Source: a virus (taxonomy: Duplodnaviria; Caudoviricetes). Taken from it: a stretch of DNA of 64,000 nt. The notes beneath the pieces are model-generated. The model saw only the letters and a program-made list of their open reading frames with translations, was not told the DNA's origin and did not search any database. Location: IMG/VR virus record IMGVR_UViG_3300021387_000796, positions 128,001 to 192,000 of that record; one strand, 5' to 3'. Positions 19,821-27,973 of this stretch are shown here, one piece after another. Within the stretch, counting starts at the first letter, position 1, and every line of letters begins with the position of its first letter. Position numbers and translations under genes: made by a program.

Positions 19821-19852
19821 TTGTGGTGGAATTAAAAAAAACTCCACCACAA
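19821..19852 (-). terminator. hairpin/terminator
   Basis: TTGTGGTGGA/TCCACCACAA. Confidence 0.6.
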
Positions 19853-22737: not shown

Positions 22738-23616
22738 CTATTTATCTCCACCTTCAATTCCAAAGTGATAAGCGATTTTATTAGAATCATCGCCAAACAA
22801 CTGATTAAACATATCTCGCATAGATTTCTTTTCTGATTCATAATTCCCAAACTTTTCGTGCAACCAATCATCAAACTTGAATACATTAAAAATTGGTCTA
22901 TTCATAATCATACTCATCTGTATATCTGCAAGATTTCGAACAACTTTATGAGGAACACCTTTATCTGTGAGTGCATTAGCCATATCAGACCATGAATAAA
23001 GTTTTTCAATATTTTTCTGATAAGTTCCACTCTTATGAAAAAGTTCATTGTTTTCTATTGTGATTTGATAATCGTTATTTGAAGCAATCGGCATAAACAA
23101 CATCATGTTCAAAACATCATCATTCAGAATATCGTTACTGTAAACTTCAATCATAATATTCTTTGTTATGTCTTCTTTATTTACATAAAGTTTGGTTTCA
23201 AGATTTTTATTATCATTGAAAAATTCATTCACTACATGAATAATCGGAACAGAAAGTACAAAATCAAAATCCTTAAAATAAACTTTGTTGCTCAAAGCAT
23301 CTTTATATGAAAGTTCTTTATCAAACAAAGTTTCATTTGCAAGGTAAACTTCTGACCTAAATAATTTACAATCTACTTCAATTAAATTGTCTTTAGAATA
23401 AAGGACTTTTCTGTAATTAAAAGTATGATAATCAAAATCTTTATAAGCATTCTTTTTGAGATATTCTACATCTTTTGATTCATCAAATAGTTCTTTTGAG
23501 ATGACCATAAAACGACCATCTGTAAAAACACATTCTTTTAATTCTTTATTGTGATAAACTTTTGCATAAGTTTCGTGTTTAGAATTACAATACATGTAAT
23601 TTTTGAAATTCTTCAT
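22738..23616 (-). CDS. hypothetical protein
   Basis: AAGGAG SD; promoter 23634-23662 (TTGACA-N17-TATATT). Confidence 0.8.
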   Translation of the reverse strand: MKNFKNYMYCNSKHETYAKVYHNKELKECVFTDGRFMVISKELFDESKDVEYLKKNAYKDFDYHTFNYRKVLYSKDNLIEVDCKLFRSEVYLANETLFDKELSYKDALSNKVYFKDFDFVLSVPIIHVVNEFFNDNKNLETKLYVNKEDITKNIMIEVYSNDILNDDVLNMMLFMPIASNNDYQITIENNELFHKSGTYQKNIEKLYSWSDMANALTDKGVPHKVVRNLADIQMSMIMNRPIFNVFKFDDWLHEKFGNYESEKKSMRDMFNQLFGDDSNKIAYHFGIEGGDK

Positions 23617-23671
23617 ATATACTCCTTATGAAAAATATATCACAGAGAAATTAAATTGTCAAGAATTTTTG

Positions 23672-23830
23672 TTATTTTTCTTGCACTTCTACGAAAGAAA
23701 TTTTCGGCATGGAATAGATGAAAGTTTCTGATTGAGTCGTGACTTTATATGTTTTGGAATTTATATCTCGACTGATTATATCTTGGATTTTGATTTCTTG
23801 TTTATCTGTGAAATGAATAATTATGCTCAA
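23672..23830 (-). CDS. small hypothetical protein
   Basis: TTG start after AGGAG; late-type CAACTATCT motif at 23863-23871. Confidence 0.5.
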   Translation of the reverse strand: MSIIIHFTDKQEIKIQDIISRDINSKTYKVTTQSETFIYSMPKISFVEVQEK

Positions 23831-23872
23831 CTTTCTATCTCCTATTAAAATGGGATATGGGAAAGATAGTTG

Positions 23873-24150
23873 AAAAAAAAAATGCCACCACAAAAGGTAG
23901 CACTCGCTCGATACGGTGAAGTCGTTTAAGGACGCTCGATAGCACACATCCGCTCCGATGAGGAATTTCCTACATCTTGGTCTTAGTCGTTAGACTGCCA
24001 AATAATCTTTCTTCATTTGTTCTTATCGCACATATCTCCCTTCACGCTGAAATATGCTTGGTCAAGAAGCACCATGTCGTTTTTCCGAGATACGATAACT
24101 CACAAACTCATTTGGGTTAGGACGGTAGAGTTTGTTATTTCCAACCATCA
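23873..24150 (-). ncRNA. candidate structured ncRNA (~275 nt) with its own late-type promoter and terminator
   Basis: TAACTATTT at 24154-24162; stems ACAAACTC/GAGTTTGT, TTATCG-TATCTC/GAGATA-CGATAA, GATG-AGGAA/TTCCT-CATC; terminator GTGCTACC/GGTGGCAT plus T run. Confidence 0.6.
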
Positions 24151-24161
24151 AATAAATAGTT

Positions 24162-24236
24162 AAAAAAAAAGAAAACCCTCGAAAATTAATGACTTTCGTG
24201 GGAGGTCGAGTGTGTCATTAACATCAAGGGTTTTCT
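24162..24236 (-). terminator. long terminator-like hairpin with CCTCCCA loop
   Basis: AGAAAACCCT/AGGGTTTTCT and TTAATGAC/GTCATTAA stems, T9 tail. Confidence 0.7.
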
Positions 24237-24239
24237 AAG

Positions 24240-24312
24240 ATTCTCGAAAGGCGATTCGAACGTCTACGGAGGGAGTCAAATTCCCTAATGCTACCATTAC
24301 ATCATTCGAGAA
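24240..24312 (-). tRNA. tRNA-Gln(UUG)
   Basis: acceptor TTCTCGA/TCGAGAA, AGGGA-ATTTGAC-TCCCT, TTCGAAT T-loop; no encoded CCA. Confidence 0.85.
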
Positions 24313-24317
24313 TGTAA

Positions 24318-24382
24318 GGAACTCAACATTTGAAATCATCGAGGGTGGGAGGGGAAATCGATAAATTCAAATGTTTCGTTCC
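24318..24382 (-). ncRNA. hairpin with C-rich CCCCTCCCACCC loop
   Basis: AACATTTGAA/TTCAAATGTT and ATCGA/TCGAT stems. Confidence 0.55.
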
Positions 24383-24404
24383 AATAATAGTTCTATATTT
24401 AATA

Positions 24405-24752
24405 CGAATCAGCCACCACGCTTTTTCGCAAAGAACCCAAAAATAATTATAGTGGAAATGCTTTGGTTTTACAATCCTCATAAGGAAACACCAAAGGCTT
24501 ACATTTCACTACTAGAAGGTTTCCATCTTGTTCACCGTAAATATATTTTCGGTAGGATAGATTGGGTTGCCTACAAACTCTAAAAATTCCCACGCAACGT
24601 TCTCGTTTTAGGTGGCTGAACACTTGCGATTTCTTAACGATAACCACCGAGAAAGGTGACGGCATCACAACACTTTACCCCTTTATACGCCACTTATGGA
24701 CTAGCGTTTCCTTTCTCTTAGTCTCTCCCAACGAATTATTATTTCGCTGATA
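24405..24752 (-). ncRNA. candidate large structured ncRNA (~350 nt)
   Basis: nested stems TCAGCCACC/GGTGGCTGA, AACCCAA/TTGGGTT, TAGTGAAATG/CATTTCCACTA, CTTTGGT/ACCAAAG, GAGAAAGG/CCTTTCTC; GC-richer; no credible ORF. Confidence 0.6.
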
Positions 24753-24756
24753 GTAG

Positions 24757-24839
24757 TAGGAGCGAAGGGAGTTGAACCCTTATCCACCAATTACTCGAAT
24801 TATAACGGACGGTTTATAAGACCGCTGAGATACGCTCCT
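24757..24839 (-). tRNA. D-arm-less tRNA-like RNA, anticodon UAU (Ile)
   Basis: AGGAGCG/CGCTCCT acceptor, GCGGT-CTTATAA-ACCGT arm, AAGGG-TTCAACT-CCCTT T arm, only 7 nt where the D arm should be. Confidence 0.7.
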
Positions 24840-24848
24840 ATATAAAAA

Positions 24849-24922
24849 TGATGCTAGGAAGAATCGAACTTCCGACTTTCTGCTTAGAAGGCAGATATTC
24901 TATCCAACTGAATTATAGCACC
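24849..24922 (-). tRNA. tRNA-Arg(UCU)
   Basis: GGTGCTA/TAGCATC, TCTGC-CTTCTAA-GCAGA, GGAAG-TTCGATT-CTTCC. Confidence 0.93.
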
Positions 24923-24929
24923 TAAATAG

Positions 24930-25017
24930 TACCGAAGATGGGATTTGAACCCATACGTCTTTTTTCAAAAACTACGAATTTTAAGTCCGTTGCGTATTCC
25001 GATTTCGCCACTTCGGC
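24930..25017 (-). tRNA. tRNA-Leu(UAA)
   Basis: GCCGAAG/CTTCGGT, ACGGA-CTTAAAA-TTCGT, long variable arm, ATGGG-TTCAAAT-CCCAT. Confidence 0.93.
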
Positions 25018-25039
25018 TTGTTTTTTTTTATCTTGATAA

Positions 25040-25068
25040 ACTATATCATAAAAAATAAAATTTGTCAA
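25040..25068 (-). promoter_or_regulatory. sigma70-like promoter of the tRNA-Leu/Arg/Ile-like/ncRNA/Gln transcript
   Basis: TTGACA-N17-TATAGT with TG extension. Confidence 0.8.
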
Positions 25069-25186
25069 GAAAACTTTCGCTTTTCAATCAAGGAACTTTG
25101 TCTTTAACCCAAACAGACTTGATTTACTCGACTTGCGGATTTGTTTTAATAATGTTCAAACAATACCACCCAAAAACACTCTTGTA

Positions 25187-25257
25187 TGGAGCATAGATTG
25201 ATTGAAAATCTACCTACTGATTAATCGTCAGTTGTTCTACCGTTGAACTAATGCTCC
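25187..25257 (-). tRNA. aberrant tRNA (Asn-like, loop CGAUUAA, anticodon AUU)
   Basis: GGAGCAT/ATGCTCC, GTTC/GAAC D stem, ACTGA/TCAGT, AGATT-TTCAATC-AATCT; G33 and U53-A61 are non-canonical. Confidence 0.7.
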
Positions 25258-25290
25258 AAAAAATTGTGGGTTATACTCATTTTTCACTAC

Positions 25291-25348
25291 AAGGTCTAGT
25301 TCTAATGATAGATTCGGATAAATGCGAAGAAGGTCTAGTTCTAATGAT
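25291..25348. repeat. 19-bp direct repeat, 2 copies, 20-nt spacer
   Basis: AAGGTCTAGTTCTAATGAT at 25291-25309 and 25330-25348. Confidence 0.85.
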
Positions 25349-25460
25349 TGAACTAGAAAAAGGCAAAATTTCTTCGCAAACCAAATCATATCAATCCCAC
25401 TTCCAACCTTTTCTTGATGATTTCCGTGTGGGGAAACCACTCATCAAGCGTGTTTCGTAT

Positions 25461-25541
25461 TCGGCAAAGAGAGACTTGAACTCTCAATCCTTTCGGAACT
25501 AGATTTTGAGTCTAGCGTGTTTGCCATTCCACCATTTGCCG
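25461..25541 (-). tRNA. tRNA-Leu(CAA)
   Basis: CGGCAAA/TTTGCCG, CTAGA-CTCAAAA-TCTAG, variable arm, GAGAG-TTCAAGT-CTCTC. Confidence 0.9.
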
Positions 25542-25611
25542 AAGACTTGTTTTTGTTCAACGAACTCCGCAAGTCAATAATCACATCAATCGAATAACAT
25601 TTAATAATCAA

Positions 25612-25640
25612 ATATTATCATAAAACAAATAAAATGTCAA
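25612..25640 (-). promoter_or_regulatory. sigma70-like promoter at the head of the RNA island
   Basis: TTGACA-N17-TAATAT with TG extension. Confidence 0.7.
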
Positions 25641-26941
25641 TCATTTTCTTCTTTTTCTTCAAATTTTTGACAATAAATTTGTAAACTTAACACATTAATT
25701 GCATCTATAAAAAAACTAGGAACTAATAAAAATATCAATTGTATTATATTAGCACTAATTCCCATTATTGCTCCAATTAAATCACATAATGATTTTGCCC
25801 TATCAGTCTTATTCTCAACTTTTTCTACAGAAACTCCGCTTTCCGCATAGTCCATCAATTTGGAATTAATTTCTTTATTGCGATTATTTAATTCTTCAAT
25901 TCTAATATTATTATCAGAAATTTTCTGTTGAGCAGTTGCAGTGATGCGACCTTCAATAATAACATTTTGTTTTTTCTCATTATCCCAAGCAAGAACATAT
26001 TGTGTCTGTTGAAATTTAATATCTTCATTCAATAATTCAATCTGCTTTTTGTTTTCGTTCAATTCATCTTTAAGCAAATCAAATGAAAGTTTCTTTCCCT
26101 CATTCACATTATAAGTTTTTTCTATAACATAATGACTGTCTTTATATTTTGTATAGTTTACATCGATTGAACTCAACATACTAAATCCAATAGTGCAAAT
26201 TGTTGTAAATCCAAATATAAATGCACTCAACTTGTGATTATTTCTCCACGCCTTGCGAGTCATTTGCGACCCTACTAAACCAAATGTGAGCATAGCGGTA
26301 GAAATAGCATAAGCAACAAATTTAGTCTGTAATCGCTGAAGATAGGTTCCTGTAAAATAAATGGAAAGAATGGAACAAACAATCATCAAAGCAATCATCA
26401 GTTTTGGATATACGAATTCAAACAAATTGAATTCATTCTTTTCTTTTTCAACCTTTGGTTTTTCTTCGACCTTTTTAGTTTCAACCACACTTTCTACTTT
26501 CTTTGGTTCGATGACTGTTTCAATTTTTGGTACAACAGTCTTTTCAACTTCCTTAGATTCTGCAACTTTTTCTACAGTCTTAGGTTTAAGAATTTCTTTG
26601 GTCTTTTCCGCCGACTGAATAGGATTTTTCACACGCTTAATTGGCGTAGGTTTAGAAACGACCGTTGGTTTTGTAGTCTGTGTTGAACTTGATGTGGAGG
26701 TAAATTCCTTCTCTTTCTTTACATTTAATGCTTTCTTCACAAGTCTTTCGCTCTGTTTAGAAAGTGTATAATCATAACCACCATTAGTGTTCTTCTTAGC
26801 ATTGTAAGTTTCAGAAGTCATAGACTTAAACTCATCGTAAGGAATCAATACTCCATCAGAAGTAAGGATTTCACCGTTCTTTGAATTTGGGAGATAGAAA
26901 TAAGTTACTCCTAAATTTTCATTCTTCCACTGTTTAATCAT
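25637..26941 (-). CDS. multi-pass membrane protein with low-complexity linker and coiled coil
   Basis: T/K/E/P-rich linker, three TMs, coiled coil, C-terminal TM; promoter 26963-26991. Confidence 0.8.
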   Translation of the reverse strand: MIKQWKNENLGVTYFYLPNSKNGEILTSDGVLIPYDEFKSMTSETYNAKKNTNGGYDYTLSKQSERLVKKALNVKKEKEFTSTSSSTQTTKPTVVSKPTPIKRVKNPIQSAEKTKEILKPKTVEKVAESKEVEKTVVPKIETVIEPKKVESVVETKKVEEKPKVEKEKNEFNLFEFVYPKLMIALMIVCSILSIYFTGTYLQRLQTKFVAYAISTAMLTFGLVGSQMTRKAWRNNHKLSAFIFGFTTICTIGFSMLSSIDVNYTKYKDSHYVIEKTYNVNEGKKLSFDLLKDELNENKKQIELLNEDIKFQQTQYVLAWDNEKKQNVIIEGRITATAQQKISDNNIRIEELNNRNKEINSKLMDYAESGVSVEKVENKTDRAKSLCDLIGAIMGISANIIQLIFLLVPSFFIDAINVLSLQIYCQKFEEKEEND

Positions 26942-27038: not shown

Positions 27039-27446
27039 ATGACTAGACAAGAACAGAAGTATCTTAAAGAATGTAAAGAAAAACAATTTATTGAATCAAT
27101 TAAAGGTCAGAAAATTGACGGAAAAACTAAAGCCGAATTTCGTAAGACTGATACTTGGAAAAACTTTAGAAAATATATTCACGATAAATACAAGGTGGAT
27201 TATCTGACAAAAAGAAAACTTACTAAAACATGGAATTTACACCATGAACGATTTGACTCAAAGTTGTATTCTGATTTAGATGAAGAATTCTTTTTGCCAC
27301 TGAATAATCAGCAACATGATGTACTCCATGTGATTATCTCCGAAACAATTAAAGACCCTACTTATTTAGATAGACTTTGTGAATTAGTACATAAACACAT
27401 AGAACTCAATGATGGAAAAGATGTAAAAGATTTCCTTAAAGATTAA
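27039..27446 (+). CDS. HNH-family endonuclease
   Basis: WKNFR, WNLHH, LNNQQHDVLH; GGAG SD; late motif at 27011. Confidence 0.7.
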   Translation: MTRQEQKYLKECKEKQFIESIKGQKIDGKTKAEFRKTDTWKNFRKYIHDKYKVDYLTKRKLTKTWNLHHERFDSKLYSDLDEEFFLPLNNQQHDVLHVIISETIKDPTYLDRLCELVHKHIELNDGKDVKDFLKD

Positions 27447-27973
27447 ATATATCTTCACTATAATTTTTAAGACTATCCATGATTATCTGTTTCGGCAAAA
27501 AGTTCCAACAGTAATATGAACTTGAAAAAGTAATTTTGTTGTCTACTTTTCCATTGTTTATAAACTTCATTCGTTCTTCAAACATTAGTAATTGTAAATC
27601 TTTATCTTTAAATATTTGCTTAGGTGCTGAATCATTCAACCACGTGTTGCTCATAATTAATGCAAATGGCTTATTAAAACTTAAAGCACGTTTAAATATA
27701 CCTCGCTTGTTTGTAAAAGGCGGATTGCTGATGATACAATCCCAATGTTCAGTAGGTTCATAAGTATAAAAATCCTTTCCTTCTAAAATATGACTATGAA
27801 TAACTTTATTTTTTCTCGAAATAAGTTTTACAAAATTACTTTCTTCCGTATCGAATGGACACCAAACCACCCAATCTTTTGGAATGTATTTTAATATAGG
27901 ATAGACCCCCCCCCATCGGAGTATAGCATTCATCATTAGAACCTTTAGAATATAAAATTGATTTCGAATTCAT
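27436..27973 (-). pseudogene. amino (N6-A/N4-C) methyltransferase frameshifted at a G9 tract (27906-27914)
   Basis: MNSKSILYSKGSNDECYTP from ATG 27973, then VWCPFD, GKDF, IISNPPF in another frame; span 538 nt = 3n+1. Confidence 0.8.

Follow-up and report, generated by a model that had tools for sequence, protein, structure and literature searches.

The DNA analyzed here (hereafter, the window) is a 64,000-nucleotide stretch comprising bases 128001–192000 of the 218-kb virus record IMGVR_UViG_3300021387_000796 (Caudoviricetes; 29% G+C, estimated to be 92% complete), and it contains at positions 25640–23873 a gene-free island of 1.75 kb in which every element lies on the minus strand, the strand of all features described below unless otherwise indicated. 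In the order of transcription, the island holds a promoter (P1), a 5′ leader, tRNA-Leu(CAA), the spacer S1, a variant tRNA-Asn, the spacer S2, a second promoter (P2), tRNA-Leu(UAA), tRNA-Arg(UCU), a tRNA-like RNA that we call IleX, the RNA modules S3a, S3b, and S3c, tRNA-Gln(UUG), a terminator (T1), and a phage promoter-like motif followed by the RNA S4b and a second terminator (T2). A previous sequence-only reading had proposed that this island may be an undescribed translation-takeover system in which tRNA processing delivers regulatory or decoy RNAs. We find instead that S3a, S3b, and S4b are probably RNAs with a function of their own, around which the transfer RNA (tRNA) genes come and go.

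Relatives of the island (∼40 loci, denoted by L numbers) were collected from metagenome contigs, both by a pattern scan and as the contigs carrying homologues of the 292-amino acid (292-aa) protein encoded by the next gene downstream, which has 142 homologues in metagenome assemblies at 79–95% identity. These relatives come from ruminant gut and pig gut assemblies, and DNA near-identical to the window is present in sheep, bovine, and goat gut metagenomes. Their islands are mosaics that carry from 0 to 8 tRNA genes each, including Lys-UUU, Glu-UUC/CUC, Asp-GUC, Pro-UGG, Asn-GUU, Met/Ile-CAU, and canonical Ile-UAU, and thus, as judged from comparison of the loci, tRNA content turns over quickly across the lineage. 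In the phage record collection, the island DNA gave generic tRNA similarity alone and the flanking proteins gave no match; scans of IMG/VR by protein and by DNA pattern returned no relatives, and exact S4b and S3a patterns had no match in bacterial and archaeal genomes, which hence offer no hint of the host or of host-derived RNAs.

The spacers fold better than shuffled sequence, with z-scores of −3.0 (S3), −3.4 (S1), and −4.9 (S4), the effect being weak for S2 (−1.8). The two large multi-stem RNAs of the sequence-only reading are in fact modular, with S3 made up of S3a, S3b, and S3c. S3a (24731–24650) is a predicted three-way junction that follows a conserved linker (24756–24732), is 90–100% identical in at least 14 relatives, and has one covarying pair. 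S3b (24648–24588) is a predicted H-type pseudoknot with stem A formed by GGUGG/CCACC, a covarying stem B, and an invariant UUAAGAAAUC segment. Its 15 pairs are formed in 94% of cells across 12 distinct sequences, with 6 pairs doubly changed, and the two helices follow the H-type order A5′-B5′-A3′-B3′ (helix A is formed in 98.6% of cells and has one covarying pair, and helix B in 91%, with five such pairs). None of 500 shuffles was as good, and slid partners were only 33–50% paired. S4b (24150–23873, core 24103–23906) is a multi-stem RNA of ∼270 nucleotides (nt) with a promoter motif and terminator of its own, and its consensus fold comprises 68 pairs with few cells broken and 6 pairs doubly changed. 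As many of these are G-U pairs, which would mismatch on the opposite strand, the constraint acts on the RNA. We note that S4b of L042, L044, and L045 has a 35-nt deletion. Compared with the window, S3a of the relatives has a median identity of 93.9%, the S4b core 93.5%, tRNA-Arg 94.7%, and the 292-aa gene 90.5%. On these alignments, S3a, S3b, and S4b are conserved at the level of the tRNAs (∼93–94%) and above the flanking genes (80–90%).

The relatives that carry 0 to 8 tRNA genes while keeping these three modules constitute a natural experiment, which separates RNA function from tRNA processing. Six of them (L029, L030, L035, L036, L037, and L039) have no match to any tRNA block of the window, and another three (L042, L044, and L045) are likewise tRNA-less but keep a degenerate Leu-like remnant. 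ARAGORN was applied to four of these nine loci and called no tRNA gene. In all nine, the locus consists of one 580-nt unit comprising a sigma70-like promoter, the linker, S3a, one or two hairpins, S3b, a 70-nt tail, the S4b core, and a terminator, and it is this unit that, in the window, is interrupted by S3c, tRNA-Gln, T1, and an additional promoter. (A global fold of the contiguous 580-nt RNA was too unreliable and was not used.) Since S3a, S3b, and S4b are retained without the tRNAs, we take these RNAs to form a core that stays constant at the locus, with the tRNAs as its variable cargo, and their persistence where tRNA genes have been lost suggests that they probably have their own function, distinct from tRNA processing. 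The delivery-cassette idea thus has the relationship the wrong way round, as the core is kept as a unit where all tRNAs are gone. The accompanying proposal that the interleaved RNAs are functional fares better: tRNA-level conservation, compensatory changes, and persistence without tRNAs all speak for it in the case of S3a, S3b, and S4b, and the signs that were named as telling against it (spacers that are unconserved, lack covariation, and leave no RNA) are not what we observe for these three modules, which are also covered by contigs from RNA libraries.

These contigs were assembled from metatranscriptome libraries. In one bovine run, a 309-nt contig spans S3a, S3b, and the start of S3c (24739–24523) at a depth of 91, compared to ∼5 for other pieces of the island (∼18×), and a second run of the same bovine sample gives a depth of 12.4 compared to 4–5. 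The 309-nt contig, whose 35-nt insert matches an L021-type relative, runs into sequencing adapter at 24739, so that the molecules end there, which points to a discrete end. For S4b, two contigs (23903–24143 and 23953–24109) are exact and self-contained, and come from two runs of two studies, one of which is of a sample that holds the DNA of the window. We consider the RNA contigs to be a moderate hint for S3a/S3b and a weak hint for S4b.

Calling of the tRNAs with ARAGORN and Rfam, which had been suggested as a check, confirmed the tRNAs and placed the spacers in no catalogued family. Six RF00005 matches above 29 bits were obtained, five of which are also called by ARAGORN and the sixth (24839–24757) is picked up by Rfam alone. 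They are the only such matches in the whole 218-kb genome and, as several tRNA genes on the same strand above the model threshold, they form a phage tRNA cluster. Four of the six are canonical and two are abnormal, as had been read from the sequence. The canonical genes are tRNA-Leu(CAA) (25542–25460, with a long variable arm, 60.6 bits), tRNA-Leu(UAA) (25017–24929, found by both ARAGORN and Rfam), tRNA-Arg(UCU) (24922–24849, 69.7 bits), and tRNA-Gln(UUG) (24312–24239, 47.1 bits), the last of which is an allele that is strongly divergent among relatives. The expectation that these tRNAs read frequent codons extends to all six: in this genome, TTA and TTG make up 34% and 29% of Leu codons, AGA 55% of Arg, CAA 73% of Gln, AAT 79% of Asn, and ATA 27% of Ile codons.

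Gln alleles are extremely divergent across the lineage as a whole, and in several relatives the tRNA-Gln(UUG) gene is 91–93 nt in length and has a long variable arm, an unusual trait in a Gln tRNA (L012:2430–2522, L013:2456–2547, L018:1441–1532, L023:4152–4243, and L043:1359–1450). Other oddities among the relatives are a chimeric pseudo-tRNA with a Glu-like 5′ half (UUC anticodon loop), an Asn 3′ half, and an unpaired acceptor stem (L008:2874–2950, also in L009 and L010), and a Leu-CAA-like gene split midway by ∼70 nt in islands that are otherwise tRNA-less (L042:3640–3790, also in L044 and L045).

Turning to the two altered tRNAs, the tRNA-Asn variant (Asn-AUU, 25258–25186, 55.6 bits) has all stems intact but carries the anticodon loop CGAUUAA, with G33, A34, and the anticodon AUU. 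This loop is kept in five diverged relatives (L017, L018, L021, L022, and L023), the canonical Asn-GUU loop (UGUUAA-type) is found in L012 and L021, and both kinds of loop occur together in L018 and L021, giving a tRNA-Asn altered at positions 33 and 34 beside a normal copy. tRNA-Asn belongs to the class of tRNAs with a queuosine-modified wobble base, which are the cleavage targets of colicin E5. Phage tRNAs have been described as altering their anticodon loops and thereby escaping host tRNA nucleases (PMC10264068), and, by analogy, the Asn loop variant fits with being such an escape form: it departs from the canonical loop exactly at positions 33 and 34, and an RNA ligase gene lies near the island. 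It differs from these phage tRNAs, however, in that G33 removes the near-universal U33, and decoding through A34 is putative.

The second altered tRNA, IleX (24839–24757, anticodon UAU, Rfam score 36.3 bits), has an acceptor arm, an anticodon arm, a T-arm, and an extra arm of ∼24–25 nt, and thus four helices, and it carries an A73 discriminator. Its D-arm is replaced by a 7-nt connector (in the Rfam alignment, 4 nt compared to 15 in the model), and IleX is therefore not a canonical cloverleaf, the fold described for all known bacterial tRNAs (PMC11551756). All 22 pairs form (100%) in each of five different sequences, and every one of the four helices has a single compensatory change on both sides of a pair, a pattern that points to selection on the helices. 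ARAGORN in its mitochondrial mode, applied to the island, called neither IleX nor S3a. In its set of acceptor, anticodon, and T arms, with the 7-nt connector in place of a D-arm, IleX resembles the D-arm-less tRNAs of metazoan mitochondria, from which it differs in that the ∼25-nt extra arm retains a four-helix junction, and in being phage-encoded. At the same position, relatives carry either a canonical tRNA-Ile(UAU) (L007, L017, and L021) or a tRNA(CAU) (L022 and L043), which fits with IleX being, as we would predict, a working or once-working reader of AUA. A covariation-backed, D-arm-less tRNA-like RNA in a bacterial virus is of interest in its own right, and, together with the altered Asn, IleX bears on the current view that the tRNAs of phages are designed to withstand the tRNA nucleases of the host.

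Two anti-Shine–Dalgarno hairpins were also part of the sequence-only reading, and both are found. The 218-kb genome has just two copies of the motif CCTCCCAC, where 0.55 would be expected; they lie at 24352 and 24205, each on the transcribed strand and each at the apex of a hairpin in the island. The C-rich loop CCUCCCAC, which the genome has on these two apices only, persists while the stems that bear it change, and the loop consensus UUCCCCUCCCACCC is exposed on at least four unrelated stems in at least 13 relatives, in the terminator that trails tRNA-Gln as well as on the hairpin of S3c. Conservation that is independent of the stem in this way indicates that the loop sequence itself is under selection. 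The loop is complementary to Shine–Dalgarno (SD) sequences of the GGAGG type, and GGAG is found upstream of 47% of the long open reading frames (ORFs) of the genome. Small RNAs of Firmicutes with C-rich loops (RsaE/RoxS type) carry UCCC motifs. The island resembles these in having C-rich motifs complementary to SD sequences in hairpin loops, and differs in that it has no Rfam match and no messenger RNA (mRNA) target that stands out among the phage start regions.

The remaining elements are consistent with an arrangement in transcription units, and the three promoters (two sigma70-like, one with a phage motif) and two terminators proposed for the island were all recovered. P1 (25640–25612; TTGACA-17-TAATAT, TG-extended) overlaps the stop codon of the upstream 434-aa gene and is kept in L008, L018, L019, L023, and L024. 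The 5′ leader that follows (25611–25543) forms a local hairpin (GACUUG/CAAGUC), and its segment GACUUGCGGA (25577–25568) can pair with 25138–25129 in a long-range helix that brackets tRNA-Leu(CAA), S1, and tRNA-Asn; compensatory changes are seen in the long-range leader/S2 helix in L024 and in the local leader hairpin in L008. S1 (25459–25259) is an optional spacer that opens with a covarying hairpin, after which come another hairpin and a direct repeat of 17 nt (25348 and 25309); it is present at full length only in L018 and L024, and in a short form in L012, L021, and L023. S2 (25185–25069) supplies the long-range helix with its 3′ arm and contains a hairpin (AUCAAG.../...CUUGAU) that covaries. 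P2 (25068–25040; TTGACA-17-TATAGT, TG-extended) agrees at 11 of 12 positions and is kept in L007, L018, L019, and L023. Further downstream, S3c (24587–24313) is an optional 275-nt module containing a hairpin (24382–24318) with the apical loop UUUCCCCUCCCACCC, and is complete only in the window, L007, L012, and L023, with L018 retaining the hairpin part. T1 (24235–24162), the 3′ trailer of tRNA-Gln, consists of a hairpin of more than 20 base pairs (24235–24171) with the apex CCUCCCA, followed by U9, and T2 (23905–23880 plus a U run) closes both S4b and the island.

In front of S4b lies the phage promoter-like motif TAACTATTT (24162–24154). The general form of this motif, TAACTAT[TC]T, has ∼70 copies in the genome, mostly 15–40 nt upstream of an SD-ATG combination. 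This placement marks it as a genuine promoter-like signal of the phage, probably one used by a class of transcripts under phage control. Copies in the window include those at 19823, 23872, 24162, 27011, and 30079, and they often follow a T run or a TGTCAAG...AAAATTAT element. As the strong promoters P1 and P2 head the two tRNA groups, and terminators are found only after tRNA-Gln and after S4b, the layout fits with putative co-transcription of the spacers with the tRNAs and their release by tRNA processing.

Taking these observations together, we lean, with somewhat better than even confidence, toward a reading in which a lineage of gut jumbo phages has a conserved locus for non-coding RNA, and the island arose when a polycistronic tRNA operon was grafted onto it. 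In this scheme, P1 would drive a precursor comprising Leu-CAA, S1, the Asn variant, and S2, while P2 would drive a second precursor comprising Leu-UAA, Arg-UCU, IleX, S3a, S3b, S3c, Gln-UUG, and T1, and the phage-motif promoter would drive a separate S4b RNA ending at T2. Host RNase P and RNase Z would excise the tRNAs, and an RNase III-type enzyme would probably cleave the long-range leader/S2 helix, with these cuts releasing the folded spacers as discrete RNAs. The tRNAs would supply phage-preferred A/U-ending codons, and the Asn with G33/A34 and the D-arm-less Ile-UAU would be selected variants, most plausibly with shapes that escape host tRNA-targeting nucleases. S3a, S3b, and S4b, as the constant core, would act as RNAs in their own right, and the C-rich loops would most likely base-pair with G-rich, SD-like sequences, as the loops of Firmicute small RNAs do.

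Several observations weigh against this reading. S4b is missing from L007 and L017, and the whole island is absent from the site in L014 and L025. S1, S2, S3c, and T1 are modules that relatives may or may not have. For IleX, a single diverged lineage supplies all of the compensatory changes. Codon supplementation and nuclease escape are both putative, the codon match having been drawn from the codon usage of the phage. Among phage translation start regions, the best pairing with the C-rich loops is −13.2 kcal/mol, with no outlier, and start regions pair above background only because of their SD sequences. Finally, the metatranscriptome libraries may contain DNA, and in run X15, the depth of S4b equals that of neighboring coding pieces.

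The same elements could be read more ambitiously, as an undescribed ∼0.6-kb composite RNA of gut jumbo phages (S3a, S3b, and S4b), uninterrupted in tRNA-less relatives and split by inserted tRNAs in the window, that, with the C-rich loops and the two altered tRNAs, forms an RNA system redirecting host translation or defeating tRNA-targeting immunity, and that would include the first D-arm-less tRNA working in bacterial translation. We regard this as unlikely. Translation takeover, the candidate role put forward in the sequence-only reading, is not supported here and stands as a hypothesis based on the C-rich loops, for which the phage start regions offered no conspicuous mRNA target.

An alternative is that the spacers act solely in cis, as processing guides, exonuclease blocks, or terminators for tRNA maturation, and have no function once released. 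Their placement between the tRNAs, the double role of T1 as terminator and tRNA-Gln trailer, the similarity of the leader/S2 helix to an RNase III processing stem, and the optional nature of S1, S2, and S3c would all be expected on such a model. What it does not account for is that S3a, S3b, and S4b persist, in the same order, where there is no tRNA to process, that the unpaired UUAAGAAAUC and the C-rich loops are invariant while stems change, and that S4b has its own promoter motif and terminator, and we therefore hold a purely cis-acting role for the spacers to be unlikely, if still the best of the alternatives.

It is also improbable, in our assessment, that S3a-S3b-S4b serves as an extended 5′ leader, of the riboswitch or attenuator kind, governing read-through into the downstream operon, even though the three modules always lie immediately upstream of that operon (the small ORF, the 292-aa and 364-aa genes, and the RNA ligase) on the same strand, and S4b is closed by a long-range helix ending 3 nt before T2, as is usual for an aptamer and its expression platform. 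The operon appears to have conserved promoters of its own after T2, namely the TAACTATCT motif at 23872 and TTGACA-17-TATATT at 23662, and it is intact where S4b (L007 and L017) or the entire island (L014 and L025) is absent; furthermore, Rfam gave no match to a riboswitch or T-box family, and no convincing antiterminator pairing was found.

We attach very little weight to the view that the spacers are functionless and represent what is left of decaying tRNA genes, together with the scars of recombination in an array that is hypervariable. In its favor are the mosaic nature of the array, the chimeric pseudo-tRNA of L008, the interrupted Leu-CAA-like gene of L042, and the outline of S3a, which loosely recalls a tRNA in having a closing stem, an arm whose loop contains CAU, and a short third arm, but decay does not sit well with conservation at the tRNA level and above the coding neighbors, with covariation in S3b, S4b, and IleX, with a fold specific to the transcribed strand, or with RNA contigs covering the modules. 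That the region hides small protein-coding genes is scarcely credible, in keeping with the original assessment that there is no credible ORF: frames of 44–91 aa exist on both strands, and the longest sense ORF (73 aa, 24668–24447) is preceded by an SD-like AAGGGG, but a family search found no match for any island ORF, the 73-aa frame is stopped in L012 and disrupted in other relatives by indels that are not multiples of three, and, in relatives, the start codon of the tiny S4b ORFs is gone or stops appear within them.

As to known systems, Rfam searched at E ≤ 10 gave nothing but tRNAs across window positions 23500–25900, and, with models including ROOL, GOLLD, riboswitches, and T-boxes, gave no match to the contiguous form in L036 at the same threshold. 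A transfer-messenger RNA (tmRNA) or mini-tmRNA was considered and rejected, as neither ARAGORN nor Rfam reports one, and the sole candidate frame (...KKDYLAV) is internally stopped in most relatives. A reading of S1 as a type III antitoxin (ToxI/CptI-like) was likewise rejected, there being just two copies of the 17-nt word, no toxin gene nearby, and no Rfam match.

One of the closest parallels is phage T4, whose tRNA region gives rise to RNA C and RNA D (species 1 and 2), both small RNAs whose role is unknown (PMC3014915). The island RNAs resemble these as small RNAs from a phage tRNA region, a likeness of location with no sequence relation expected, and they differ in being larger, in having a covariation-supported pseudoknot, and in persisting without tRNA genes in some relatives. 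GOLLD (RF01998) and ROOL (RF03087) are large structured RNAs often found near tRNAs and in (pro)phages, and ROOL, known from cow rumen data, averages 581 nt (PMC5737381). Despite the similarity in setting, including (pro)phages, and the 580-nt length of the gut unit described here, neither model matches the window or the L036 form, and the equal length is a coincidence until shown otherwise. T1, as a tRNA trailer with a conserved loop, invites comparison with the regulatory 3′ETS(leuZ) of Escherichia coli, mentioned in PMC7154689 as a trailer of a tRNA precursor that is released by processing; this is an analogy only. The general kind, that is, RNAs encoded in phage tRNA regions, is thus already known, and no catalogued family fits the island RNAs. 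Small RNAs from phage tRNA regions have a long history, and those of T4 are still without a known role. The retention of S3a, S3b, and S4b whatever the number of tRNA genes makes these RNAs worth testing.

Just outside the left border of the island, between T2 and the promoter of the 292-aa gene, lies a small conserved ORF (23830–23675; 51 aa, with a TTG start after AGGAG), which is present in nearly all relatives at ∼80% nucleotide identity (median 80.3%), and for which a family search gave no match. The downstream operon (23616–20971) encodes the 292-aa protein, a 364-aa protein, and an RNA ligase (PF09414), and it directly follows the island in relatives, with the 364-aa gene missing in L014 and L025 and the RNA ligase gene conserved three genes downstream of the island. 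The 292-aa and 364-aa proteins match no Pfam family at threshold, fall into two PHROGs families of unknown function, and gave no lead in a protein atlas. The AlphaFold model of the 364-aa protein (mean predicted local distance difference test score, pLDDT, of 41.7) was too poor for a structure search. In a search of representative proteins, the last 80 residues of the 292-aa protein proved to be a widespread small, uncharacterized domain, which also occurs as stand-alone proteins of 80–90 aa in many metagenomes.

Among the relatives, unrelated protein genes are inserted inside the island in L012/L013 and in L007 (367 aa and 467 aa), for which family searches gave nothing informative, and IS605/TnpB (OrfB_IS605, Cas12f1-like_TNB) and Y1 transposase genes are found near the island in the flanks of L007, L014, L017, L042, and L043. 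Finally, a scan for C runs found a run of nine C on the plus strand of the window near 27903–27914; the region 27436–27973 had been read from the sequence as a DNA methyltransferase gene with a G9 tract, and at the matching place L036 and L037 carry an intact 260-aa N6_N4_Mtase gene.

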